Below are positions 7,540 to 59,517 of a DNA stretch of 64,000 bases, piece by piece. A program made the position numbers and the translations under genes. Every line of letters starts with the position of its first letter. The first letter of the stretch is position 1. Below the pieces are notes generated by a model. It was not told the origin of the DNA. It was given only the letters and a program-made list of their open reading frames with translations, and made no database searches. The DNA lies in assembly GCA_004322365.1 (NCBI GenBank), contig SCTS01000005.1:3697-67696 (forward strand), in the 5' to 3' direction. This DNA comes from Patescibacteria group bacterium. GTDB taxonomy: Bacteria > Patescibacteriota > Minisyncoccia > Phycocordibacterales > Phycocordibacteraceae.

Positions 7540-8139
7540 TTAGTGCGAAAGCCAAGGGATTGGAAAAGGAGAGAACTCTGGAAGAAGAGGCTTGCCATAG
7601 AGGAGTCGTGAAGCAACTTCAGCATGTGAAAGAGCGCCGGTAAGAGCCTTATGAGGTTTTGGCTCTTCTGGGATGCCGACATACTTGAGTGCAACATCGA
7701 GAGTAAGCTTGGTGTGATGTTTTTCTTCATCAAACGGAGGAGTAATGCCTCGCTCCACCATGTGCATGTAGGTGAGAGTATGGGTATCGAGTGTGCGGTG
7801 TGCAAACGGAAAATTAATACCCCCTCTCTCGCAAGCGGCAATCAAGAAATCTCTATCAAAAGATGGGTTTTGTCCTACAAAAGTTCGATCATGTACAGTA
7901 AGTGTCCATGAAATAAAATCTTGCACGAGCTCTATTTCGCTTTTCTTTGAAAGATCAATGGCTTGTGCGTGTGAAAAACCATTAACCCCAAGTGCCTCTT
8001 CATTAATATGAGCTCCGTCCCATACCCTACACTCGCCATAAAAACGATTCGTAGGAGTAGCAACATCAACTCCCCCAATTGAGAGTATTGAATTCTTATG
8101 AGACTCTGTGCCTGAGCATTCGATATCTAGAGCAATCAT
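7540..8139 (-). CDS. DEDDh-family 3'-5' exonuclease (DnaQ/RNase T-like)
   Basis: MIALDIECSGT... (Exo I, D-x-E); ...FVGQNPSFDRDFL... (Exo II); ...HKALTGALSHAEV (Exo III, H-x4-D-like). Confidence 0.65.
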   Translation of the reverse strand: MIALDIECSGTESHKNSILSIGGVDVATPTNRFYGECRVWDGAHINEEALGVNGFSHAQAIDLSKKSEIELVQDFISWTLTVHDRTFVGQNPSFDRDFLIAACERGGINFPFAHRTLDTHTLTYMHMVERGITPPFDEEKHHTKLTLDVALKYVGIPEEPKPHKALTGALSHAEVASRLLYGKPLLPEFSPFPIPWLSH

Positions 8140-8274
8140 CTTACTAGGGTACAGGTTCTAGGTTCTAGGTGCCAGCTTTTTATGAACTAAAACTATGCCT
8201 TAAACCTAGAAGCTAGCACCTAGAACCTTCTAAAAATCACCCCGTGCATCTCTCATGCTCTCAGGCATTTTCAC

Positions 8275-8316
8275 CTGTATAGTTTAATCTAACGATCGTT
8301 AAATTAAACTATACAG
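8275..8316. repeat. family-B 42-bp palindromic repeat, copy 1 (ctgtatagtttaatctaacgatcgttaaattaaactatacag), followed by a T-run
   Basis: One of 4 near-identical palindromes in the window (see findings). Located 3' of the Ada-like gene. Confidence 0.8.
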
Positions 8317-8391
8317 TTCTTTTTTCATCTTTATGTGTTTATTTGATTTGAAAAGCTAAAACCTAACACCTAGAACCTAGCCCCTTCCCCG

Positions 8392-8796
8392 CTAAAGTCC
8401 ATTACAACGGCCAGCGTGGTAGCCCGCACTCTCAGCGGAAGCCCTGCTGTTGAAATAAATTCTGTCTGTTGAGGGAATCTTTACTGCAAGCGGGCACCAT
8501 GGGAAAAAGTAGGTACTGCCTGTTTTTGACGCTACAAAATAGCCCGCAGCCTGAGGTGGTGGCGGTAAAACAATTTCTTCTCTTATGCCGCCAAGGCCTA
8601 AGAATCCGGCGAGAGTTGAAGTACTTTGACCATCTGGATAAAGAACCTTAAATTGACCCTTTTCTGAATAAAAAACAGAAAGCCTACCGAGTCCAAAGGC
8701 CAGAAAAGCAACCAATACAATTACAAGAACAATTAGGGCGTTTTCCCGTACCCTTCCCCACAGAGCCTTGATTTTATTAGTGAAATCACGAAACAT
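8392..8796 (-). CDS. membrane-anchored protein with a C-terminal Ada-like metal-binding (Zn-ribbon) domain
   Basis: N-terminal TM helix. C-terminus YFVASKTGSTYFFPWCPLAVKIPSTDRIYFNSRASAESAGYHAGRC resembles the Ada N-terminal Zn-binding fold (FxxxKtgxYhxPxCpxaxxIxxxNrvxFxSxxeAxxAGyxpCkxC). Confidence 0.5.
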   Translation of the reverse strand: MFRDFTNKIKALWGRVRENALIVLVIVLVAFLAFGLGRLSVFYSEKGQFKVLYPDGQSTSTLAGFLGLGGIREEIVLPPPPQAAGYFVASKTGSTYFFPWCPLAVKIPSTDRIYFNSRASAESAGYHAGRCNGL

Positions 8797-9757: not shown

Positions 9758-9849
9758 TCCTATCAGTTTACAGGTTTCAGCTGTCAGGTGCCAGCTTTTT
9801 TTCTGAATTCAAAGCTGGAAGCTGAAAGCCGACAGCTGAAAGCTAACTC

Positions 9850-11064
9850 CTACTTTCCTGTAATCAAAAACTCCGCAGCCCTCTCTAGTTGAGGATCGCG
9901 CTTTGCGTCTATGTCTTCCTTAGTAACTGCCACTTCAATATCAGGAACTATGCCCTCATGAGAAATAGAGATTCCATTAGGAGTTAGCCAACGAGCAATA
10001 GTTATTTTTAATGAAGTATCTGCGGTTACATTAAAAAGTTGCTGTACCGATCCTTTACCGAATGATTTTCCGCCAATAAGAGTTGCCTTGCCATGATCAC
10101 GGAGTGCCCCCGCTAGAATCTCTGATGCGGAAGCAGAGCCTTCGTCAATTAAAATCGCAAATTTTACCTTGTCAGAAAAAACATCATACCCACGACTTCG
10201 ACTCACATCAGGAGCCTGCTTAGAACCAAAATCTTCAGTAACTATCACCTTCCCTACTGGCAAAAACCAACTAGCAATGTCAACGGCCACCTCCAAGTAG
10301 CCACCAGGGTTACCGCGAAGATCAATAATCATTTTATTGGAACCTGAATCAGCAAACTCACGAATAGCCTGACGGAACTTCTCGGGAGCATTTGCATTAA
10401 ATGTAAAGAGACGGATTACAAACACACCATCAGGGCGCGATGTTGTCTTAATGGTTGGGAGGTTAATAGTGGCTCGAACGAGCGTCACATCAAATGGAGC
10501 GTCTTTGCCACGAATCACTGTGATAGTGACTGGCGTACCAATTTCTCCTCGAATAACACTGACTGCATCATCAACAGATATGCCAACAGTATCTTTACCT
10601 TCAATTTTTAGAATGACATCCCCACTCCTCATTCCAGCCTTTGATGCAGGTGTACCTTCAAGTGGCGCTACTACGGTAAGTATTCCATCTTTAAGACCTA
10701 ACTCCATCCCAACACCGCCAAAATCACCTTGAACTTGACTATCAAAAAGTTTTTTCTCTTTTGGAGGGAAAAAGGTTGTATAAGGATCACCATAAGAAGC
10801 GGCGAGGCCTTCTATCATTCCCCACAACCTGTCTTCATCAGTGCTCGCTGCTGTAGTGGTGGATGGAGTAAAATTTTGATCAAGTAATTCCCACGCCTTA
10901 AATAACGGCTGCAAATCAGCTTTTGAATGATCGGTGGCACCACGCGCCTGAGTTGTCCAAGGAACCATTCCTCCAGCTTCTGTACCAACAAAGAAGGCAA
11001 CAATGGCAACAAGTACTACCGCTATCAGTGCAGTGCGAAGTCCAATCTTAGAATTCTCTTTCAT
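9850..11064 (-). CDS. ctpA: carboxyl-terminal processing protease (S41 family, CtpA/Prc-like) with PDZ domain
   Basis: N-terminal TM anchor. PDZ region (GDVILKIEGKD). S41 catalytic motifs DLRGNPGGY and a Ser/Lys dyad context. Confidence 0.9.
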   Translation of the reverse strand: MKENSKIGLRTALIAVVLVAIVAFFVGTEAGGMVPWTTQARGATDHSKADLQPLFKAWELLDQNFTPSTTTAASTDEDRLWGMIEGLAASYGDPYTTFFPPKEKKLFDSQVQGDFGGVGMELGLKDGILTVVAPLEGTPASKAGMRSGDVILKIEGKDTVGISVDDAVSVIRGEIGTPVTITVIRGKDAPFDVTLVRATINLPTIKTTSRPDGVFVIRLFTFNANAPEKFRQAIREFADSGSNKMIIDLRGNPGGYLEVAVDIASWFLPVGKVIVTEDFGSKQAPDVSRSRGYDVFSDKVKFAILIDEGSASASEILAGALRDHGKATLIGGKSFGKGSVQQLFNVTADTSLKITIARWLTPNGISISHEGIVPDIEVAVTKEDIDAKRDPQLERAAEFLITGK

Positions 11065-11209
11065 TGTTTCCTATTATGCCACACTCGAGTAGGTGTCAGG
11101 TTTTAGGTTACAGGTTTCAGCGTGTGGATACTAAACCGAGAAGCTCAAACCCTCTCCCCTGAAAGCTGAAAGCTGGCACCTGAAAGCTCATCAAAACAGG
11201 TATACTGTT

Positions 11210-12127
11210 TTGATGATAAACCGTTACGAATACGAGGGCATAACTTGGATAGACATAGAAAATCCAACCGCTGATGAAATTGCCGAGGTTGGGCAAGAAT
11301 TCAACCTTGGTCTATTGCTCCGACAAGAATTGTTAGCGCCAACAATAAAGCCCCGTGTAGATTTATATCCTGAGATTGTCTACACACTTCTTCATTTCCC
11401 AGCACGAAGACACACTCACAATGCACAAGAAAGTCAGGAGGTCGATTTCGTTATCGGCAAACACTTCATCATTACGGTGCATTATGACACCATTGATGCT
11501 CTTGTTGATTTTGCTCGATCATTTGAAGCAGCGATGCTTCTTAAGCGCACGACAGGAAAATTCCACAGTGGGCATGTACTTTTGGAACTTACGCAACGAC
11601 TCTACCAAGAAGTTGAATACGAATTAGATTCACTTGAAGATTCTGTAACTGCAATTGAAACAGCAATATTCTCAGGACACGAGAAAGATATGGTCTTAGC
11701 AATATCGCGCGTCACCCGTGAACTCATCGATCAAAAACGCACACTCTCTATGCATGCTGAGGTGCTTGCCTCCTTAGAACAAGCGACCACTACTTTATTC
11801 GGTGAACACTTCACCGAATATCTCCGTGGAGTATCTGCATTCCACTACCGTGCACATCAACGAGCACTTGCCATGATGGATATCGTCACCGAACTTCGAA
11901 AAACAAATGACTCCCTCTTGACCACACGCCAAAACGAAATCACAAAAAACCTTACTATCATGGCATTCATCACCTTTCCGCTTTCCGTGGTAGCGGCAGT
12001 GTTCGGGATGAATACTGAACACACACCGATCGTCGGATCCCAGAATGGTTTCTGGATTATCACGGGAGCCATGGTCGTCCTTACCGCAGTCTTTTTCATC
12101 TACTTTAAGATTAAGAAGTGGTTCTAG
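11210..12127 (+). CDS. corA: CorA-family Mg2+/Co2+ transporter
   Basis: C-terminal two TM helices with the GMN signature (VFGMNTEHTP). 305 aa is typical. Confidence 0.85.
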   Translation: MMINRYEYEGITWIDIENPTADEIAEVGQEFNLGLLLRQELLAPTIKPRVDLYPEIVYTLLHFPARRHTHNAQESQEVDFVIGKHFIITVHYDTIDALVDFARSFEAAMLLKRTTGKFHSGHVLLELTQRLYQEVEYELDSLEDSVTAIETAIFSGHEKDMVLAISRVTRELIDQKRTLSMHAEVLASLEQATTTLFGEHFTEYLRGVSAFHYRAHQRALAMMDIVTELRKTNDSLLTTRQNEITKNLTIMAFITFPLSVVAAVFGMNTEHTPIVGSQNGFWIITGAMVVLTAVFFIYFKIKKWF

Positions 12128-12152: not shown

Positions 12153-12192
12153 GCTAGGCGATGCTTCATCGGATCCGAAGGGATCATTTAGC
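12153..12192. repeat. family-C 40-bp repeat, copy 2 (gctaggcgatgcttcatcggatccgaagggatcatttagc)
   Basis: 4 copies in the window, all sharing the core atcggatccgaagggatca. Flanked by family-A heptamer arrays. Confidence 0.8.
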
Positions 12193-12321: not shown

Positions 12322-13719
12322 GTGCTACAATGCACTGCTATGGCAAACCAAGGTGCACGAATCCCTCCACAATCCACTGAAGCAGAGCGAGCACTTTTAG
12401 GCTCAGTGATGATCAAGCCTGACTCAATTCATGAAGTCACCGACTTCGTTTCTTCTGATTCTTTTTACGTAGAAAAACATCGTCTTATTTACCGAGCGTT
12501 CACTGATCTTACGACCGGCGGTAATCCTATTGACCTATTGTCTACCGCCAATCGTCTTAAAGAAACAAATGACTTAGAGCGTGCCGGTGGTAACGCATAC
12601 TTGGCTGAACTCGTGAGCGCAGTACCAAGCTCAGCAAACCTCAAACACTATGCTGAAATTGTTCAGAAAAAATCAATGATGCGTTCTCTCATTTCTGCAT
12701 CGTCAGACATTGGCGAGATGGGCTATGACGAATCGCAAGATATTGATGAATTATTGAATAGTGCTGAAAAAAGAATTTACGAAGTAACAAGCTCTCCTTC
12801 TGTTAGAAAGTTCGTCGCCATTGGAGATGCACTTGGAGAAGCGTGGGAGCGTTTTGATAACCTCCACAAAGGCGAATACCAAATGCGTGGCATTCCCACC
12901 GGCTTTGATGCCCTCGACAACATGCTTGCTGGCTTTCAACGCTCTGACCTCATAATCCTTGCCGCTCGTCCTTCCGCAGGTAAAACAGCTTTTGCCTTGG
13001 ACATTGCACGACAAACCGCCATTAAGCACGGCACACCGGTGGGAATTTTTTCACTTGAAATGAGCGCCCAACAATTGGTTGACCGTATGCTCGCAGCTGA
13101 GGCTCGAGTAGATGCATGGAAACTCCGTACTGGAAAAATTTCTACTGATGAAGAGTTTGAAAGAATTCGTGATGCCATGGGTCGTCTGTCTAAAGCTCCT
13201 ATCCATATCGATGATCAACCTGCAACAAATGCACTCGGTATGCGTTCAGCCGCTCGTCGATTAAAACGAGAGCACGGTATTGGCCTCCTTGTGGTTGACT
13301 ACCTCCAGCTTATGAGCCCAACATCGTCTCGCTCATCAGACTCAATGGTTCAGCAAGTCACCGAAATCTCTCGTTCTCTAAAAACCCTCGCTCGTGAACT
13401 CGATGTTCCTGTACTTGCACTCTCCCAGCTTTCGCGTGCCATTGAACAAAGGCGAGGTCGTCCTCGCCTCTCAGACCTTCGTGACTCAGGCTCAATCGAG
13501 CAGGACGCAGACGTCGTTATGTTCATTCACAATGAAGATAGGTACAACGACAACAAAGAAGAGCGCAGTAATGTTACTGAAATCTTGATTGAAAAACACC
13601 GCAATGGTCGCACAGGGAAAATAGATCTCTTCTTCGATGTAGAACGAGCAACCTTCCTTCCTATTGAAAAATCAGGCTTCAGTGGAGGAGTGCCGGGAAA
13701 TGCTCAGGATGATTTTTGA
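12322..13719 (+). CDS. dnaB: replicative DNA helicase DnaB
   Basis: Walker A (ARPSAGKTAF), RecA-like motifs (VVDYLQLM, SQLSR). 465 aa. Possible alternative start at 12340 (MANQG). A TACAAT -10-like box lies about 15 nt upstream. Confidence 0.92.
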   Translation: MLQCTAMANQGARIPPQSTEAERALLGSVMIKPDSIHEVTDFVSSDSFYVEKHRLIYRAFTDLTTGGNPIDLLSTANRLKETNDLERAGGNAYLAELVSAVPSSANLKHYAEIVQKKSMMRSLISASSDIGEMGYDESQDIDELLNSAEKRIYEVTSSPSVRKFVAIGDALGEAWERFDNLHKGEYQMRGIPTGFDALDNMLAGFQRSDLIILAARPSAGKTAFALDIARQTAIKHGTPVGIFSLEMSAQQLVDRMLAAEARVDAWKLRTGKISTDEEFERIRDAMGRLSKAPIHIDDQPATNALGMRSAARRLKREHGIGLLVVDYLQLMSPTSSRSSDSMVQQVTEISRSLKTLARELDVPVLALSQLSRAIEQRRGRPRLSDLRDSGSIEQDADVVMFIHNEDRYNDNKEERSNVTEILIEKHRNGRTGKIDLFFDVERATFLPIEKSGFSGGVPGNAQDDF

Positions 13720-13726
13720 TTAAAAA

Positions 13727-13770
13727 GCTGTCAGGCGATTCTTAATCGGATCCGAAGGGATCACCTAGCT
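13727..13770. repeat. family-C repeat, copy 3
   Basis: gctgtcaggcgattcttaatcggatccgaagggatcacctagct. Confidence 0.75.
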
Positions 13771-13833
13771 GTTAGCTTTCAGTGTTCAGCGTTTTCACTT
13801 CTTAAATCAAATAAATACAGATATTAAAAATAT

Positions 13834-13875
13834 CTGTATAGTATAATTTAACGACCGTTAAATTATACTATACAG
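13834..13875. repeat. family-B palindrome, copy 2 (ctgtatagtataatttaacgaccgttaaattatactatacag)
   Basis: Perfect 42-bp palindrome between dnaB and recR. Preceded by a second small palindrome, cagatattaaaaatatctg. Confidence 0.8.
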
Positions 13876-13929
13876 TTACAAACAAGAAAAAGCTGGCACC
13901 TGTAAGATGTAAGCTGTAAGCTAGTTGTT

Positions 13930-14529
13930 ATGTCTCGTCCTACACAAGACCTCATTGAACATATTGCTGAATTCCCTGGCATTGGCCCAAGGCAAGCTCG
14001 TCGTGTGGTGCAATTTCTTCTCTCTGCTGGGGCACCATTTCGTGAAAAGTTAGCACAGCTCATCATCGACTCAGGTACATCCACTTCACCTTGCACAATA
14101 TGTTTTCGTTTTGATGACGCTAAGGACTCAGGTGTATGCTCAATTTGTTCTGACGGCTCACGCGACCACACAACATTGATGGTGGTTGAAAAAGATATCG
14201 ACATAGAGGGCATAGAAGGCTCAGGGGCGTATAGAGGAATCTATTTCATTCTAGGAGGACTCAAAACTATGACTGAGAGAAAGAACTCTCGAATGGTACG
14301 AACAAAAGAACTACTAGAGCGTGTAGCAAAAAACGATACGAAAGAAATTATTTTTGCACTTTCAACCACACCTGAGGGTGACTACACTGCTCGCGAACTT
14401 TCAAAAGAAATACAAAAAGCACATCCAGGTAAAAAAGTAACCCTTCTTGGGCGAGGGCTTTCAGTAGGAGCAGAAATAGAATACGCGGACTCGGAAACAC
14501 TCCGAAGTGCTTTTAGAAATCGGTCTTAA
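13930..14529 (+). CDS. recR: recombination protein RecR
   Basis: HhH (FPGIGPRQARR), C4 zinc finger (CTICFRFDD...CSICSD), Toprim region. 199 aa. Confidence 0.9.
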   Translation: MSRPTQDLIEHIAEFPGIGPRQARRVVQFLLSAGAPFREKLAQLIIDSGTSTSPCTICFRFDDAKDSGVCSICSDGSRDHTTLMVVEKDIDIEGIEGSGAYRGIYFILGGLKTMTERKNSRMVRTKELLERVAKNDTKEIIFALSTTPEGDYTARELSKEIQKAHPGKKVTLLGRGLSVGAEIEYADSETLRSAFRNRS

Positions 14530-14706: not shown

Positions 14707-14901
14707 TTATTTTTTAAAAAGACCAGCAAAAAATCGTCTTACTTTTTCTCCATTAGAGGCTTTGTAGATATTTTCATATCTTTGGGCAGCACGTTCTGCT
14801 CTACCAGGAGGTAATCCACGCTGGAGATACTCGGACTCTATACCGTGTAAAAAGAAATTAGACATAGCAAACGAACGAAAGGAAAACTTAAACAGTCTCA
14901 A
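14707..14901 (-). CDS. hypothetical small basic protein (uncertain; region 14530-14887 has two overlapping small ORFs)
   Basis: ORFs of 64 and 67 aa on the minus strand downstream of rplU. No motif recognised. Could be a degraded gene. Confidence 0.2.
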   Translation of the reverse strand: MRLFKFSFRSFAMSNFFLHGIESEYLQRGLPPGRAERAAQRYENIYKASNGEKVRRFFAGLFKK

Positions 14902-15199
14902 TCTTGACCTTCATGTTGGGCTGTTTGTGCCCTCGTTTCTTGTAGTATCGGCTTTTTGCTTTGTACTTTACGACGACAACTTTAGGAGCGCGCCCTACCA
15001 CGAGGACGGTACCAGTAACTTTTGCGCCTGAAACGGTTGGATCACCCACTGATGCTTTTGTTCCGTCGTCAGTAAAAAGGACAGCATCAAAGGTGATTTT
15101 GTCGTCCTTCTTGACATCGGCTATTTTTTCAATCGTAATCAAAGAACCCTCTTTTACAAGGTACTGCTTCCCTCCTGTCTTTATAACCGCAATATTCAT
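14888..15199 (-). CDS. rplU: 50S ribosomal protein L21
   Basis: Internal start MNIAVIKTGGKQYLVKEGSLITIEKI... is canonical bL21. The track ORF extends upstream to 15280, but the conserved N-terminus begins at the Met at 15199. Confidence 0.85.
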   Translation of the reverse strand: MNIAVIKTGGKQYLVKEGSLITIEKIADVKKDDKITFDAVLFTDDGTKASVGDPTVSGAKVTGTVLVVGRAPKVVVVKYKAKSRYYKKRGHKQPNMKVKIETV

Positions 15200-15242
15200 A
15201 TCAGAGCATCGTACCAAAAAAGCCTTAAAAAGCAACCCTCTA

Positions 15243-15494
15243 CTAGCCGGTAAAGCCCTCTCTACCAAGGGAACCCTCAATCAATTCAGGACGCAAGACT
15301 GTCTTTGTGGGATGGAATAGTCGTCGCACAAATCTCTCTGCAGTAGTAGATGCTAAACCTACTTTTCCTCTGCGAAATAGTGCCGCCCAAAAGACCGTCC
15401 TCTTAACGGCATGGCCATCCAGAATCGGTTTTAGAGAATCCTCATCAGTAAAAAATCTGTCGTGCTGGAGCCAAGAGTCTAGATTTTTTGACAT
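15243..15494 (-). CDS. hypothetical protein
   Basis: 83-aa ORF upstream of rplU. No motif recognised. Confidence 0.25.
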   Translation of the reverse strand: MSKNLDSWLQHDRFFTDEDSLKPILDGHAVKRTVFWAALFRRGKVGLASTTAERFVRRLFHPTKTVLRPELIEGSLGREGFTG

Positions 15495-15570: not shown

Positions 15571-15612
15571 GTTCGTACCTGTATAGTATAATCTAACGGT
15601 CGTTAGATTATA
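15571..15612. repeat. family-B palindrome, copy 3 (ctgtatagtataatctaacggtcgttagattatactatacag)
   Basis: Carries mirrored (compensatory) substitutions relative to copy 2. Lies 3' of glmS. Confidence 0.8.
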
Positions 15613-15747
15613 CTATACAGGTCTTTTGACTCTTAATTCGGCCATTTGATTTAAGGGGTGGAACAGCTGACACCTATTCTACGCAAGCAAAGCTTCCTCT
15701 CATCGTTCGTTCGGGAATATTCAAACCTAGCACCTAACATCTCCTAT

Positions 15748-17568
15748 TTATTCTACGGTGACTGATTTCGCAAGATTGCGAGGACGGTCTACATTAAGGC
15801 CCTTGTCTGCCGCAAAGTGATACGCAAAGAGTTGAAGCGCAATGATAGAAAGCACTACTGAGAGTTCTTCCGATGCTTTTGGAATGTAGATAACATGATC
15901 AGAGACCTCTTTGATTTTCTCATCACCAGCAGTTGCAATAGCAATCACAGGCCCTTTACGTGTGCGTATCTCAATCATATTAGAAACAGTTTTCTCGTAC
16001 ACTGAATCTTGAGGAACCACAGCGACTGTTGGGAAATTTTCATCAATCATTGCCAAAGGGCCGTGTTTCATCTCCCCTGCCCCATAGCCTTCTGCATGAA
16101 CATATGAAACTTCTTTTAGCTTCAGCGCTCCTTCTAAGGCTGCTGGATAGCTAAACTTACGCCCAATAAACAGGAAGTCTCGTGAGTCTTTATATACACT
16201 GGCAACCTTACGAATTTCCTCAGATTGCTCTAATACTTTTTTTGCTAACTCTGGCAAACTCTTAAGTGCATTAGCTAGTGCAACACCATCATCTTTAGAA
16301 AGTGAGCGAGTACGGCCAAGGAAGAGTGCAACAAGTGAAAGAATAACCACTTGAGAAACAAGAGCCTTGGTGGAAGCAACACCAATTTCGGGACCTGCAT
16401 GGTTATACACTCCAGCGTCTGTCTCACGGGCAATAGTAGAGCCAACAGTATTCACAATGCCAAGAGTAAGTGCGCCATGTCGCTTCGCTTCACGAATAGC
16501 TTCAAGTGTATCGAGAGTCTCGCCTGACTGGGAGATTGCCAAGACTGCGGTGTTTGGTCTGATAACTGGCTTTCTATAACGAAATTCCGAAGCAAGTTCC
16601 ACTTCAACAGGAACACCAGCAAGGGATTCAATTAGATACTCACCAATGAGTCCTGCGTAGTATGCGGTTCCACAACCAACAATAATAAGTCTGTCGATAT
16701 TTTGAAGCTCCTTTTCAACTGCTTCTAGTCCGCCAAGTTTTGCCTTCCCTTCTTCCATAATAAGTCTGCCTCGAAGTGCATTCTCTATAACCTCAGGTGA
16801 TTCCATCATCTCTTTCAGCATGAAATGTGGGTATCCTCCGCGTGATGCCTCTCCAACATCCCAAGTAATGGTTTCAGACGGGCGATCAACCTCGGTTTCC
16901 AAAAGCGTACGCACACGGTGTATTGTAGGCGTGATAATCGCAACATCTCCATCGGAGAGAAACATCATTTGCTTCGTGTGTTTCAAAATTGGCGTTGCAT
17001 CAGAAGCAATAAAATTTTCTCCGTCTCCAAGACCTACAACAACAGGAGAACCCATTCGTGCAGTAATAATGGTGTCGGGATCTTTTGCATAGGAAATCAG
17101 AAGACCATAAGTACCTCGGAGTTTCTTCAAGGTATCAATAACTGCATCTTCAAAATTAAGTTTGTCTTTCAGAGCTCCTTCAATAAGGTGCGCAATGACT
17201 TCAGTGTCTGTTTCTGATTTGAACGTATGACCTCCAGCTACAAGCTCTTCTTTAAGTTCACGGAAGTTTTCAATAATGCCGTTATGTATAACAAACACAT
17301 CTCCATCACAGTCGCCATGCGGGTGTGCATTCACTTCATTTGGGGCTCCATGCGTTGCCCAGCGTAGATGCGCTATCCCGGAAGTTGCAGGATAGTCTTT
17401 TGTCATTCTTTTCGTAAGCTCTGCAACTGCGCCGGGGGTTTTCACCACATCAAAGCCGGGCATGTATATTCCTGCAGAATCGTACCCGCGGTACTCAAGC
17501 ATTGAAAGTCCTTCGAGAAGGATTGGAGACGCTTTTTTAGAGCCAGTGTAGGCAAAGATTCCGCACAT
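15748..17568 (-). CDS. glmS: glutamine--fructose-6-phosphate aminotransferase (isomerising)
   Basis: N-terminal MCGIFAY (Ntn-hydrolase Cys2), two SIS domains, C-terminal ...VTVE. 606 aa. Confidence 0.95.
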   Translation of the reverse strand: MCGIFAYTGSKKASPILLEGLSMLEYRGYDSAGIYMPGFDVVKTPGAVAELTKRMTKDYPATSGIAHLRWATHGAPNEVNAHPHGDCDGDVFVIHNGIIENFRELKEELVAGGHTFKSETDTEVIAHLIEGALKDKLNFEDAVIDTLKKLRGTYGLLISYAKDPDTIITARMGSPVVVGLGDGENFIASDATPILKHTKQMMFLSDGDVAIITPTIHRVRTLLETEVDRPSETITWDVGEASRGGYPHFMLKEMMESPEVIENALRGRLIMEEGKAKLGGLEAVEKELQNIDRLIIVGCGTAYYAGLIGEYLIESLAGVPVEVELASEFRYRKPVIRPNTAVLAISQSGETLDTLEAIREAKRHGALTLGIVNTVGSTIARETDAGVYNHAGPEIGVASTKALVSQVVILSLVALFLGRTRSLSKDDGVALANALKSLPELAKKVLEQSEEIRKVASVYKDSRDFLFIGRKFSYPAALEGALKLKEVSYVHAEGYGAGEMKHGPLAMIDENFPTVAVVPQDSVYEKTVSNMIEIRTRKGPVIAIATAGDEKIKEVSDHVIYIPKASEELSVVLSIIALQLFAYHFAADKGLNVDRPRNLAKSVTVE

Positions 17569-19389: not shown

Positions 19390-19618
19390 TCCGCTAAATT
19401 GTATGTCACACGAAATTGGCGTACACAAAAAACATCGTATAACTTCAGCCGATAGATTTCGGGGACAAACTTTTCAAAGAGTTGCTTCGGGCACTAGAGA
19501 TATCATTACCGCAACCAAAAAATGGGCAGAGATTCAGCATGAAATGTTGTCACTCAAAGCTAAGAGAATTAAACACAGAAGAAACCGACGAAAAGACCCG
19601 GACATGTGGGCATAATAT

Positions 19619-19651
19619 AATAATGAACGACCTACGAGGTCGTTCATTATT
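19619..19651. terminator. bidirectional terminator hairpin (aataatgaacgacctacgaggtcgttcattatt)
   Basis: 13-bp perfect stem between convergent genes. Confidence 0.8.
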
Positions 19652-19668
19652 ATTTAAGAAGGGCTAAG

Positions 19669-55362: not shown

Positions 55363-55467
55363 GACACCACCAGCTTTCAGGTGTCAGGTTCCAGCTGTCA
55401 GCTTTTCACATCCTCAATTTCAGTCCGAAAGCTGGAACCTGACAGCTGGAACCTGTAAACTGGAGGG

Positions 55468-56040: not shown

Positions 56041-56904
56041 ATGGTACAAAAAAGTAAATTACGAATAGTATTTTTTGGGACTCCTTCTTTTTCAACATTT
56101 GTACTTGACGAACTAGAGAGCGCTGGAATACTCCCCGCACTCATTGTAACGGTCCCAGATAAACCGGCCGACAGAGGACTCCTCATAAAATCCTCCCCGG
56201 TAAAAGCATGGGGTGAAGAAAGAAGCATTGATGTGCTTCAACCTGAACGTTTAGATTTTTCAGATCCTGCCGCAGACATTATCTTAAACAGTGAGTGGGA
56301 TATGTTTATTGTTGCAGGATATGGAAAACTCCTTCCTTCTGCGCTTCTTGCGATTCCAAAATATGGCACCTTAAATGTGCATCCATCACTCTTACCAAAG
56401 TTTCGTGGCCCGTCCCCTATTGAAAGCCAGATACTGAGCAACTCAAAGGAAGTGGGTGTATCTATCATTCTTCTTGATGAGGAAACTGACCACGGACCAA
56501 TACTTGCGCAAGCTTCCATTACCCCAGAACCATGGCCATTTAGAAGAAACATGGTTGAGGATCTTTTGTGGCACGAAGGTGGAAAACTCTTAGCTGAATC
56601 CATTCCGCTTGTTGTGGACGGCTCACTCAAAGCAGAAGCGCAAAATCACATAGAGGCAACCTTCACACCAAAATTAAAGAAAGAAGATGGGCTCATTGAC
56701 CTCGCTGATGACGCCTATCAAAATTATCTCAAGTTCTGTGCGTACGAAGGCTGGCCAGGAACATACTTCTTTACAAAAAGAGGAGATAAAGAAATACGCA
56801 TCAAAATTATGGACGCAACATATGAAGACGGAACCTTCACTCCTACTCGCATCATTCCTGAAGGAAAAAAAGAAATGGACTACGCAGACTTCCTACGCTC
56901 GTAA
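56041..56904 (+). CDS. fmt: methionyl-tRNA formyltransferase
   Basis: LRIVFFGTP, NVHPSLLPKFRGPSPI (HxSLLPxxRG). def-fmt operon context. Confidence 0.9.
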   Translation: MVQKSKLRIVFFGTPSFSTFVLDELESAGILPALIVTVPDKPADRGLLIKSSPVKAWGEERSIDVLQPERLDFSDPAADIILNSEWDMFIVAGYGKLLPSALLAIPKYGTLNVHPSLLPKFRGPSPIESQILSNSKEVGVSIILLDEETDHGPILAQASITPEPWPFRRNMVEDLLWHEGGKLLAESIPLVVDGSLKAEAQNHIEATFTPKLKKEDGLIDLADDAYQNYLKFCAYEGWPGTYFFTKRGDKEIRIKIMDATYEDGTFTPTRIIPEGKKEMDYADFLRS

Positions 56905-56939
56905 TTTCAGCTACCTTTCATTACTTGAAGCTAAGAAAC

Positions 56940-56985
56940 CCCCGTATAGTATAATTTAACGGTCGTTAAATTATACTATACAGGG
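56940..56985. repeat. family-B palindrome, copy 4, with a G/C clamp and T-run (ccccgtatagtataatttaacggtcgttaaattatactatacagggg ttttt); probable bidirectional terminator
   Basis: Between convergent genes fmt (+) and the M24 peptidase (-). Confidence 0.8.
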
Positions 56986-57445
56986 GTTTTTAACACGCTA
57001 GGTTTTTGATGAGTGATCTTTTTACCTTTTCCTCCCTCTGGGTGATATTCACCCTGCTTGCGTACAAAACTAATAAAAAGCGCGGCTATTCTGTCTACAA
57101 CTTCTGGTTCAAGGTTTGGATCAAATGGATTGAGAGTGCTTGGATCAGGTACTTCTTCTTTCTTTCCCTCTCCCATATTTTTTGTATAAAAATAGAACTA
57201 ATTATCTGTAATCAAAATTTGAAAATCTTCTGGACCAGCCTCGTATATTCGCGCCTTTTGACCTGGCTGAAGTCTGGACTGCACGGCAGTAAACTCTCTG
57301 AGGGCTTGCTCGCGAGTTGGAAGACTGATGTAAAACCACTCATCAGATTTTAGACTTTCTGTAGACATATTTTCTATATATTAGCCTTTACATAAAAATT
57401 ATACCTTCACCGAGGTAAGTGTCAATAGAGCTAAAAACACATACC

Positions 57446-58774
57446 TTAATCGAGATACTCTCTCGTGAGATTTCGAATGCCAGTTTCTATCACCAACACA
57501 TCATCTTCTATGCGCACTCCACCGTAAGGCGCAAGGCGATCAATAAGCTCCCAGTTAAAATGTTTTGCGGTATCGCCATCTCTGTGTGAACGAAGCAACA
57601 TTTCAATAAAATAGACACCTGGCTCTATGGTAAACACGTGCCCAACTTCCATCATCGTATTCGTTCGTAGATTTTCCGTCTCGACAGTCTGCTGTGAATA
57701 TTTTTTTACTCCCCCGACATCATGCACTTGGAGTCCGAGCATATGCCCAACGCCGTGCGGGAAAAATGCCTTAGTTAGTCCAAGGCTCACCGCTTCCTCA
57801 CCGCTTACATTCAAAATACGGAGCGAAGAAAGTAAGTCTCCAATCTTTTTATGCGCTTCCTTTTGTAAATCCACAAAAGAAAGTCCTGGTTTCGCAAGAA
57901 CACAAAGCTCCCGCTGAAGCGTTTCAACGCCGGCAAGAAGTTTAGCAAAAAGAGGGTCGGCATCAGGTGCTACAAATGTACGGGTTACATCTGATGCATA
58001 CCCGAGGTAATTTGCGCCTGCATCGAGGAGTAATGATTTACCACCCCTTATCTCTGTACGCTTTCCTTGATAGTGAAGAGTCGAACCTTTCTCATTAAGG
58101 GCCACAATGGTTTCATAGGGTAACTCTTTTTCAGTACAACCAACGCCATACATATACACCTGATGAATTGCGAGCTCCGAAGCACCGGTCAGGAACATTT
58201 GCTTCGCTACCGCGTGACCTTTGGCAGCAATCTCGTTGGCTTTTGAGATACATGCAATTTCATATTCAGTCTTAAAGCTCCTATTCTTGTCCAAAGAAGC
58301 AATGAGTTCAGACGGGTTTATGCAATCCTCTACAATCCCTCGTTTTTTCGTCCACTCTGGGTTGTCGCCAATATATGCAATGCGCTGAATATTGGACCTC
58401 ATAGGTTCCATATTCAAAAGCTCTTGCCAAGCTGAATCGGCATTGGACACTTCGCGGAAGTCGAATTCTGAAAGCCAGAAATTGTTTTTAAGTGAAGTTT
58501 GTTCATGCCAAAAATCATCGGGCTTTACACGAATCAGTAGCGGTTTAATATTCGGGTGTATTAAAAGAAAATTACCTGGTTCGTTCAAAGGTGTCCAGTG
58601 TGCAAAGTGTGCATACGCACGAAACGGTGCGTCTTGGTCATCGGTATAGTATCGAAGTGGAGTGCCGGAATAAATAATAAGAGCATCAAATCCTGAAATA
58701 GAAATAATATCTAAAACCTTTTGTTTTTGTTCAGTAATGTGCGCAGAATAAAGAGAAAGAATCTCGTCTTTCAT
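57446..58774 (-). CDS. Xaa-Pro aminopeptidase / prolidase (M24B family)
   Basis: HGVGHMLGLQVHDVGG and other metal-ligand motifs of the pita-bread fold. 442 aa. Confidence 0.85.
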   Translation of the reverse strand: MKDEILSLYSAHITEQKQKVLDIISISGFDALIIYSGTPLRYYTDDQDAPFRAYAHFAHWTPLNEPGNFLLIHPNIKPLLIRVKPDDFWHEQTSLKNNFWLSEFDFREVSNADSAWQELLNMEPMRSNIQRIAYIGDNPEWTKKRGIVEDCINPSELIASLDKNRSFKTEYEIACISKANEIAAKGHAVAKQMFLTGASELAIHQVYMYGVGCTEKELPYETIVALNEKGSTLHYQGKRTEIRGGKSLLLDAGANYLGYASDVTRTFVAPDADPLFAKLLAGVETLQRELCVLAKPGLSFVDLQKEAHKKIGDLLSSLRILNVSGEEAVSLGLTKAFFPHGVGHMLGLQVHDVGGVKKYSQQTVETENLRTNTMMEVGHVFTIEPGVYFIEMLLRSHRDGDTAKHFNWELIDRLAPYGGVRIEDDVLVIETGIRNLTREYLD

Positions 58775-59397: not shown

Positions 59398-59455
59398 ATA
59401 AATTAATAGTTATCTTCAATATAGAACATTCAGCGTATTGTAGCTCTCCACTACT

Positions 59456-59495
59456 AAAAATAGAATAGGTTGCATATGCAACCTATTCTATTTTT
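59456..59495. terminator. 40-bp perfect palindrome (aaaaatagaataggttgcatatgcaacctattctattttt); bidirectional terminator-like
   Basis: Unique sequence, not family B. Long AT-rich stem with A-run/T-run flanks. Confidence 0.6.
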
Positions 59496-59517
59496 AGACG
59501 GAGAACTTTCTAGGATG

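Follow-up and report, generated by a model that had tools for sequence, protein, structure and literature searches.

A clade-specific 42-bp intergenic palindrome of Paceibacterota with conserved arms, mirrored changes and terminator-like flanks

What keeps the same 42-bp palindrome in place at several sites of a small bacterial genome, with changes in one arm mirrored in the other? The question is raised by a 64,000-nucleotide stretch (the window) of contig SCTS01000005.1, positions 3,697 to 67,696, from assembly GCA_004322365.1 of a Patescibacteria group bacterium. An initial annotation, made from the letters of the window, had noticed four copies of a palindrome, here called PAL, and had offered an RNA terminator, a hairpin-templated mobile element or the operator of a dimeric protein as explanations. 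The reading that we favor, with a probability of about one half, is that PAL is a lineage-specific family of extragenic palindromes, similar to the repetitive extragenic palindromes (REP), that would serve mainly as the stem of intrinsic terminators, often bidirectional ones, or as an insulator between transcription units. The bacteria of the candidate phyla radiation (CPR) have very small genomes and, to our knowledge, almost no experimentally characterized cis-regulatory elements. A 42-bp element that is near-invariant at about 20 intergenic sites amid full turnover of neighboring sequence is a handle on how transcription units are delimited in them.

The palindrome family and its distribution

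The window was searched with the 42-mer of copy 2 at up to 3 mismatches, then at up to 10 substitutions, and then with a single arm, and 100 shuffled sequences served as control. Exactly four copies were found at both thresholds (expectation in the shuffles, 0.00), so that the four copies are real, and no isolated arm with up to 4 mismatches occurs in the window. PAL consists of two 20-nt arms and a 2-nt centre, which is AT in copy 1, AC in copy 2 and GT in copies 3 and 4. The term perfect palindrome was too generous, as the centre between the arms is self-complementary in copy 1 only. The 42-mer that had been quoted for positions 8275-8316 is that of copy 2, and copy 1 reads CTGTATAGTTTAATCTAACGATCGTTAAATTAAACTATACAG. 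The positions given for copies 1 and 2 were correct; copy 3 had been placed 8 nt off (15571-15612 instead of 15579-15620), and the range 56940-56985 for copy 4 takes in 2 nt of flank on each side.

A scan of 185,579 species genomes of GTDB, in which the six positions with observed variation were set to N, yielded 27 loci from three Paceibacterota/Parcubacteria metagenome-assembled genomes (MAGs) and from two short contigs binned as 'Saccharibacteria' and 'Simkania'. A looser pattern with eight pairs per copy left free, GTATAG-N8-AACG-NN-CGTT-N8-CTATAC, was applied to JGI metagenomes and found true family members in two groundwater samples only. Viral contigs scanned for PAL gave no matches. 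In these GTDB genomes and JGI metagenomes, PAL was confined to about six sister species that form a clade of genus level within Paceibacterota (CPR). The window belongs to another species in this clade, because it is 84-92% identical to the genomes of these relatives. The total came to 72 copies with 37 distinct 42-mers, 1-7 changes away from the consensus, and similarity of the flanks sorted them into about 24 orthologous loci, with every one of the 72 copies between genes. There are about 18-20 copies per genome of about 0.8-1 Mb, and one genome has 18 pattern-matching copies over four contigs totaling 789 kb. Degenerate, truncated or single-arm copies were absent from 517 kb composed of the fetched loci and the window (nhmmer at maximum sensitivity). 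Literature searches found no palindromic repeat family described in CPR/Patescibacteria, and PAL matches no curated covariance model, tRNA-Glu being the sole match when the window was scanned with Rfam 15 at the gathering threshold.

Some of the contigs collected need comment. The two with other taxonomic labels, CAYGDK010000094.1 ('Saccharibacteria', L001) and JAGXTH010000098.1 ('Simkania sp.', L002), are 89-90% identical to the window overall and syntenic with Paceibacterota loci, and L002 reaches 96% identity to the window in the two genes next to PAL; both contigs were probably assigned to the wrong MAG. High-GC soil metagenome contigs (L044:1201-1242, L048:1552-1593, L057:1288-1329 and L039:2570-2611) carry a 42-bp quasi-palindrome of 20-2-20 layout over the start codon of a small serine recombinase gene (...YYRVSTQKQGRSGLG). 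This is probably that gene's own res/operator site, unrelated to PAL beyond the bases fixed by the pattern. The 20-2-20 geometry would also match a serine-recombinase crossover site, an identity rejected for PAL since the high-GC loci share only pattern-fixed bases, no YYRVSTQKQ recombinase was found in the CPR loci, and a palindromic search pattern itself enriches palindromes. Another perfect palindrome, found in L053-L055 and L058, was judged to be a chance match to the pattern, its shared bases being only those that the pattern fixes.

Constraint and mirrored changes in the arms

In 90 comparisons between orthologous copies, divergence was 2.2% in the arms, 36.7% in the central dinucleotide and 37.2% in the 20-nt flanks; the 4-fold degenerate sites of adjacent genes were 52-94% identical, mostly 60-80%. 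The arms evolve roughly 15 times more slowly than nearby unconstrained DNA, and the centre is free. The variants track orthology. C15/G28 is found at the glmS locus in three species and T10/A33 at the Sua5 locus in all species, and other loci hold variants of their own (A14A15/T28T29, G14/C29 or G9/C34). Therefore, the copies are old, vertically inherited and not homogenized. Over 55 copies, the outer GTATAG and inner TAACG blocks are near-invariant, positions 3-8 and 17-20 having been fixed in both database scans, and positions 2, 9, 10, 14 and 15 vary.

Covariation was measured in an ungapped alignment of 55 distinct copies with 6-nt flanks, with 500 shuffles and slid partners as controls. 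The 19 core pairs are paired in 98.3% of cases, and six of them have changed on both sides. The covariation score was 0.162, compared to 0.064 ± 0.007 in the shuffled alignments, none of which (0/500) reached it, and to at most 0.053 with slid partners. This is the family-wide alignment that had been proposed as a check, and it bears out the class of explanation put forward from four copies, namely selection on, or copying through, a hairpin: the mirrored changes are far beyond chance. As RNA, PAL folds into 19 pairs with a 4-nt loop. On either strand, each window copy gives a predicted RNA hairpin of 19-27 bp (-19 to -38 kcal/mol; z -7.7 to -9.5), and the DNA folds of copies 2 and 4 have -14.6 and -19.3 kcal/mol, respectively. 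Because the arms are true inverse complements, the same hairpin results whichever strand is transcribed.

Counted by locus, the mirrored events comprise about 22 transversions (T-A to A-T or G-C) and about 4 transitions. A transversion has no route by way of a G·U intermediate, and most of the mirrored events are of that kind. No strand preference was seen among the unmirrored changes, in which G·T, A·C and other mismatches are mixed. These two results give no support to the argument that had been built on a possible G·U wobble in copy 1. Copying of one arm from the other through the hairpin would fit the mirrored changes better than stepwise compensation by way of G·U. Perfect stems are known to be made and repaired by template switching in quasi-palindromes (PMC8794818; PMC7202029), and the centre, which flips between AC and GT in orthologs, is consistent with it. 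If such copying takes place during replication, it would yield both the mirrored, mostly transversional substitutions and the AC/GT flips of the centre. Selection on the sequence of the arms is also needed, because templated copying alone does not slow evolution; the arms would be held identical by purifying selection and hairpin-templated copying together. As a natural palindrome with arms that co-evolve by mirrored and mostly transversional changes, PAL bears on the question of whether such changes arise by template switching or by stepwise compensation. That the sequence of the arms is conserved implies a putative sequence-specific reader of PAL.

The nature of such a reader may be considered at the level of RNA or of duplex DNA. 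In the RNA-only version, PAL would be processed by RNase III or bound as a hairpin by an RNA-binding protein, and would determine how stable the flanking cistrons are instead of ending transcription. Its perfect stem, 19-27 bp long, makes an ideal substrate as double-stranded RNA and is identical from either strand, its conservation could reflect a specific RNA-binding protein, and most copies are downstream of a gene. We nevertheless regard this explanation as improbable. The copies show neither wobble tolerance nor strand asymmetry, their mirrored changes are mostly transversions, and RNase III needs no conserved sequence. Moreover, the divergent loci and the loci where PAL is upstream of a leaderless-type promoter, described below, need not be transcribed on the gene strand.

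The second possibility is that PAL is read in duplex DNA by a sequence-specific dimer or tetramer, be it a global regulator, a roadblock or a protein of the nucleoid or partition type, with an incidental hairpin and with mirrored changes as a by-product of template switching in a quasi-palindrome. Specific bases, and not just pairing, are conserved (2.2% divergence in the arms versus about 37% in neighboring DNA), and the invariant GTATAG and TAACG blocks would suit two contact patches about one helical turn apart. The presence of about 20 sites per genome with no decayed copies, the orientation independence and the free centre, as in many operators, agree with this idea, as do the position of PAL about 110 nt upstream of parB at one locus and the lack of canonical parS in the 517 kb. 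On balance we find it unlikely. It leaves the enrichment of T-runs, and the stem extension linked to them, without a reason. Seven convergent loci have no promoter to regulate, and the distance to the start codon ranges from about 30 to more than 200 nt. The neighbors are unrelated housekeeping genes (among others dnaB/recR, glmS/L21, fmt, parB, pheS, polA/holA, gyrB, RNase R, L9 and gltX) among which no regulon theme was found, and no regulator gene is consistently adjacent. The convergent loci, the lack of a functional theme among neighbors and the varying distance to start codons likewise speak against the dimeric-protein operator of the initial annotation.

The partition version of this idea can be addressed more directly. 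The inner part of PAL, TTTAAC-GNNC-GTTAAA (in one variant TTTCACGATCGTGAAA), resembles parS half-sites. A parS or Noc-type site was rejected because the TTTAAC half-sites are 4 bp further apart than those of parS and because copies are present on all four large contigs. Canonical parS itself (TGTTNCACGTGAAACA, a 16-bp palindrome, up to 2 mismatches) was not found in the 517 kb, even around parB (L033/L011/L021/L068). The sequence also invites a reading of each arm as a sigma-70 promoter, the two facing each other, with TATAAT as the -10 box at positions 9-14 of both arms; in copy 3 a promoter scan gave TTAAGA-18-TATAAT, with 10 of 12 consensus matches. This is highly improbable, and the reading was rejected, for the key positions of the -10 box vary. 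A-11 and T-7, which correspond to PAL positions 10 and 14, are among the most variable and mirrored ones (A10T in 8 of 55 copies, non-T at position 14 in 10 of 55). In addition, some copies are between convergent genes, and the downstream genes have a -10-like box of their own 5-8 nt before the ATG.

T-runs, stem extension and gene orientation

A T-run was defined as at least 5 T in 8 nt, starting 0-3 nt after the stem, and 59 distinct copies were compared with 73,828 noncoding positions. T-runs were present on at least one strand in 46 of the 59 copies (78%; controls, 24.6%) and on both sides in 11 (19%; controls, 1.7%), and 13 copies had none. The bases just outside the 42-mer extend the stem by means of sequences specific to each locus, such as CCC/GGG, AGC/GCT, CAC/GTG and AGA/TCT. 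Watson-Crick pairing at offsets 1-3 was 33% in copies without a T-run, 54% in those with a T-run on one side and 55% (45% G-C) in those with T-runs on both sides; all three offsets were paired in 0 of 13, 9 of 34 and 5 of 11 copies, respectively. Stem extension co-occurs with the T-run and is G+C-rich mainly where there are T-runs on both sides.

Gene orientation was assigned with a codon-usage model. Calls based on the longest open reading frames (ORFs) gave no link between T-run and direction, misled by spurious antisense ORFs; one locus that they presented as divergent is really rplL followed by a canonical terminator, PAL with a T-run, and the next gene. With the codon-usage calls, 11 of about 24 loci have the T-run behind an incoming gene, on the strand of that gene. 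PAL sites, not collapsed by orthology, are convergent in 33% of cases versus 15% in the background, and divergent in 10% versus 17%. At about half of the loci, the hairpin, the locus-specific extension of its stem and the T-run would stop transcription of the incoming gene. The terminator suggested earlier fits that half, on account of the T-run enrichment, the stem extension, the 11 of 24 sense T-runs and the excess of convergent over divergent sites, and does not fit window copies 1-3, where the T-run is antisense.

A number of observations weigh against a role as terminator or insulator. The T-run is antisense-only at 7 loci, including window copies 1-3, and missing at 6 others; two or three loci are truly divergent. 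PAL is already preceded by a canonical terminator at rplL in L006 and also in L004. The core stem is A+T-rich, with 6 G·C pairs out of 19, which is atypical of intrinsic terminators. Ordinary terminators do not conserve the sequence of their stem, and PAL has 40 specific bases slowed 15-fold at about 24 loci in six species. Because the copies are related by descent, the counts exceed the number of independent events. The invariance of positions 3-8 and 17-20 is partly an artifact of the search patterns; its main support is the handful of copies that turned up incidentally in flanking sequence, and one of these has changes at positions 3 and 17/26. Finally, G·U is not favored over A·C on the strand with the T-run (13 versus 7 in the flanks, 3 versus 3 in the core), which gives no support to selection at the RNA level.

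Among the window copies, the architecture of a bidirectional terminator is found in copy 4, which spans positions 56936-56991 (core 56942-56983) without an assigned strand. It has a C2·A41 mismatch and the centre GT, and is located inside AAACCC...GGGGTTTTT, 37 nt past fmt (56041-56904, plus strand). Its RNA folds have -33.8/-37.8 kcal/mol, and its orthologs are in L003, L007, L008, L029 and L050. The CCCC/GGGG clamp of this copy and the T-runs beside the copies are present as first annotated, yet the T-runs of copies 1-3 are antisense to both flanking genes. Copy 4 faces a conserved 66-aa ORF (56976-57176, minus strand), beyond which is pepQ (57446-58774, minus strand). The ORF is 57-66 aa long, kept in five species, and has a positive coding score. 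The fmt site is a convergent pair because this small conserved ORF ends, with its stop codon, within the right arm of copy 4.

Copies 1-3 are between co-directional genes, each of them preceding one gene just as it follows the other, and at such sites the remark that all copies are at the 3′-ends of genes is uninformative. Copy 1 (8275-8316, no strand) has the mirrored T10/A33 variant, the unmirrored C15/A28 and the centre AT; compared to copy 2, the changes are A10T/T33A, T15C and the centre. The unmirrored change, which is U·G on the minus strand, had been recognized correctly, and the mirrored A10T/T33A had been missed. The copy is flanked by two minus-strand genes, which code for an Ada-Zn-like protein of 134 aa (8392-8796) and a Rv2179c-like exonuclease (7540-8139). 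Its RNA hairpin has -18.9 kcal/mol on the plus strand and -23.3 kcal/mol on the minus strand, and orthologs are in L018, L002, L013:6779 and L061. Next to it are the T-run TTCTTTTTT (8317-8325, plus strand), antisense to both genes, and the motif AAATCAAAT of the cassette subfamily described below (8341-8349, minus strand), 24 nt upstream in the direction of the genes. A promoter-like cassette end, AAAAAGCTGGCACCTAGAACCTAGAACCTGTACCCT-N6-ATG (8140-8180, minus strand), has CTGGCA beginning 36 nt before the start codon of the exonuclease gene.

Copy 2 (13834-13875, no strand) equals the family consensus, with the centre AC, and is located between dnaB (12322-13719) and recR (13930-14529), both on the plus strand; its only ortholog is in L001. 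Upstream, at 13804-13833 on the plus strand, are the motif AAATCAAAT (13804-13812) and an A-run (13826-13830) that, on the minus strand, is a T-run after the hairpin. Downstream, at 13876-13932 on the same strand, is the putative leaderless-type promoter module of recR, TTACAAACA followed by AAAAAGCTGGCACCTG...TAAGCT-N7-ATG, in which the -35-like CTGGCA starts 17 nt past PAL. The entire spacer between dnaB and recR is predicted to form one large hairpin (-58.6 kcal/mol, z -5.9), in which the heptamer arms, at 13765-13800 and 13876-13932, make up the outer stem and PAL the apex.

Copy 3 (15577-15622, core 15579-15620, no strand) is the mirrored variant C15/G28 with the centre GT, and an additional AC/GT extends its stem to 21-22 pairs. 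It had been described as differing from copy 2 at two mirrored positions on each arm. There is one mirrored pair, T15C/A28G; the change of the centre from AC to GT, its reverse complement, is a flip, and there is no second compensated pair. The copy is downstream of glmS (15748-17568, minus strand) and upstream of the L21 region (14888-15280, minus strand), with RNA folds of -30.4/-31.0 kcal/mol and orthologs in L005, L010 and L046. On the plus strand, at 15623-15652, it is followed by the T-run CTTTTG, antisense to the flanking genes, and by ATTTGATTT (15644-15652), which is AAATCAAAT on the gene strand. The window has other, unrelated perfect palindromes at 59454-59497 (22-nt arms without spacer, CTAAAAATAGAATAGGTTGCAT/ATGCAACCTATTCTATTTTTAG) and at 19617-19653 (17-nt arms, 3-nt spacer).

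Promoter cassettes and comparison with known systems

Around PAL, about 150 nt of homology are common to six of the seven loci with an antisense T-run, window copies 1-3 among them. The cassette begins with heptamer-like arms (AGGTTCTAGGTGCTAGCTT), followed by TTAAATCAAAT, 15-25 nt ending in an A-run, and PAL; after PAL come GTAAAAAC, then AAAAAGCTGGCACCTG(AAACCTG)n TAnnCT, 6-7 nt and the ATG. The apparent T-run of these loci is the A-run of the cassette on the other strand, inherited with the cassette and not placed independently. In several of them PAL is exactly 16-17 nt before a -35-like box, and at four window genes CTGGCA is found 36-37 nt before the start codon. Heptamer-like repeats (AGCTGNN/ACCTGNN/CTAGAAC), which had been annotated as two other repeat families, A and C, are found at 8140-8230, 9758-9850, 11165-11215, 13885-13932 and 55371-55467. 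They form inverted arms of 19-29 nt, with AAAAAGCTGGCACCTG...TAnnCT-N6-7-ATG as the arm proximal to the gene, and look like combined hairpin and leaderless-type promoter cassettes. These repeats resemble the STRR elements of cyanobacteria; a cyanobacterial origin of the window was rejected, as no HIP1 sites were found in it and Paceibacterota MAGs, at 84-92% identity, are its nearest relatives. A small repeated hairpin, (G)GATCCGAAGGGATC, is located just before a heptamer-repeat cassette at 12172-12185 and again at about 13749-13763.

Among 187 gene starts in the window and L001-L027, 38-47% have a TAnnnT box whose last base is 5-8 nt ahead of the ATG, compared to about 10% at control offsets, and only 6-12% have a motif similar to the Shine-Dalgarno sequence. 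The combination suggests that leaderless mRNAs are widespread in the clade, and transcription units would start at leaderless-type promoters abutting the start codon. Since these promoters abut the start codon, a PAL located upstream is outside the transcript of that gene, between the previous stop codon and the next promoter. In the six-locus cassette subfamily, PAL, being upstream of the next promoter, could, if functional there, only stop transcription that runs backwards from the promoter side.

The cassettes are not stable in evolution. At the dnaB-recR site, the cassette with PAL is present in the window and L001 only; in one sister species the cassette is there but lacks PAL, and in two others the sequence is unrelated. 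Upstream of the L9 gene, one species has a PAL cassette, the window a PAL-less one and two others a cassette of the GGGTTTAG type, and the coding sequence on either side can be aligned as far as the last sense codon and again from the start codon onward. More generally, orthologous intergenic sites hold unrelated cassettes, either of the CTGGCACC type with or without PAL, of the GGGTTTAG/CCCTAAAC type, or of unique sequence. In the regions compared (window 9758-9850 with L013:5225-5392, L018 and L061; 13720-13929 with L005, L013 and L046), the genes on both sides keep an identity of about 90%, which reaches to the last sense codon before the swapped cassette and resumes at the start codon after it. 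The pattern in the alignments is that of intergenic DNA replaced as whole modules. At the dnaB-recR and L9 sites, which differ between species, neither a clean insertion or excision of the bare 42-mer nor a target-site duplication was seen. PAL is gained or lost within cassette replacement because the orthologous sites without it carry wholly different cassettes.

Such presence and absence in sister species might also be expected of a non-autonomous mobile hairpin of the REPIN or PATE type, copied in trans by a HUH/Y1 transposase (RAYT or IS200/IS605-like) and tolerated between genes with no function for the host. The palindromic copies of PAL are dispersed and confined to extragenic DNA, and consist of one master sequence and a few variants 1-4 steps away. 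Its T10/A33, C15/G28 and G14/C29 variants recur at unlinked loci, and it is found at the apex of larger hairpins. Vertical persistence over long periods is known for REPIN populations (PMC3116915, PMC8049555). Still, mobility as the explanation is quite unlikely. The roughly 15-fold slower evolution of the arms at each orthologous locus and the lack of decayed relics point to selection at every site, and what differs between species is a whole cassette and not a clean 42-bp insertion. The flanks are inverted-complementary and not direct repeats, there are only about 20 copies per genome, and the GT[AG]G head of REP is missing. A scan of the 517 kb of loci and window for HUH/IS200-type N-terminal motifs, which covers each genome partially, was negative. 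For the mobile element that had been proposed, no sign of independent movement was seen: there is neither a target-site duplication, a clean empty site, a decayed copy nor, in the 517 kb scanned, a transposase, and the orthologous copies are vertically inherited. A miniature inverted-repeat transposable element (MITE) was likewise rejected on the complementary rather than directly repeated flanks and the entirely different cassettes of PAL-less sister sites. The only gene seen bracketed by PAL is a conserved 103-aa ORF (MSEKDQRKPEHLF...) with no Pfam match, between two PALs about 440 bp apart (L014:7084-7609 and L023:575-1089).

The constraint on the arms and the cassettes can also be combined in a more speculative way, which we consider doubtful. 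PAL may be the recognition hairpin of an undescribed sequence-specific CPR factor, for instance a dedicated termination or insulation protein or a domesticated hairpin-binding transposase, and at the same time one module of exchangeable promoter-terminator cassettes. In genomes that seem to depend on leaderless-type promoters, one such cassette would take the place of another between orthologous genes, the exchanges being bounded by stop and start codons. If a specific binding factor exists, PAL is a bait to find it. The practical value of PAL is modest: it may help to annotate terminators and operon boundaries in Paceibacteria, mark mis-binned contigs, and provide a candidate terminator part.

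Known systems share some of these properties. Bidirectional intrinsic (Rho-independent) terminators have the same A-tract/stem-loop/T-tract arrangement that is found at copy 4 and in locus groups 5, 14 and 16, and extension of the stem base linked to T-runs and enrichment between convergent genes are further points of likeness. PAL differs from them in that its stem sequence is reused and conserved at about 24 loci across species, in that the stem is A+T-rich and twice the usual length, and in that about a quarter of the copies have no T-run and one subfamily has it antisense. Neisseria DUS and Haemophilus USS, when arranged as inverted pairs, are also conserved sequences that double as terminators, and Correia elements are intergenic, with promoter-like ends and hairpins sensitive to RNase III, which recalls the cassette subfamily with its promoter-like arms. 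Unlike both, PAL has no isolated half-sites or genic copies, is 50-100 times less abundant and shows no TA target duplication. A DUS-like element was rejected on the absence of isolated half-sites in the window (up to 4 mismatches) and in the 517 kb searched with nhmmer.

Quasi-palindrome template-switch mutagenesis and the hairpin-loop inversions of chloroplast spacers produce mirrored multi-base changes, extension of arm identity and loop flips such as AC to GT, as seen in PAL (PMC8794818, PMC7202029). They are a mutational mechanism and not a function, and alone they leave the evolution of the arms unslowed, so that selection is required for PAL.

The closest relatives in kind are the REP, BIME and REPIN elements of Enterobacteria and Pseudomonas, which are mobilized by RAYT. 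They are short palindromes found exclusively outside genes, with one master sequence per lineage and long vertical inheritance; they are located mostly between co-directional or convergent genes and form hairpins able to attenuate transcription or to stabilize RNA 3′-ends. A REPIN consists of two inverted REPs in one long hairpin, which matches the 20-2-20 layout of PAL. REP sequences are defined by a GT[AG]G tetranucleotide at the foot of the hairpin. The foot of PAL is CTGTATAG / CTATACAG, with neither GTAG nor GTGG. Other differences are about 20 copies per genome instead of hundreds, arms that are perfect complements and not themselves palindromic, the lack of clustered BIME-like arrays and of decayed copies, and a CPR host with a genome of about 1 Mb. 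In REP systems a single-copy RAYT gene, coding for a Y1/HUH transposase, usually has REPs on both sides; no RAYT was found with PAL in a motif scan of the 517 kb, part of each genome. As a kind of element PAL is known, belonging with REP-like repeats and terminator hairpins, and it is set apart from them by its host, its low copy number, its perfect 20-nt arms, the strong constraint on them and its embedding in promoter cassettes.

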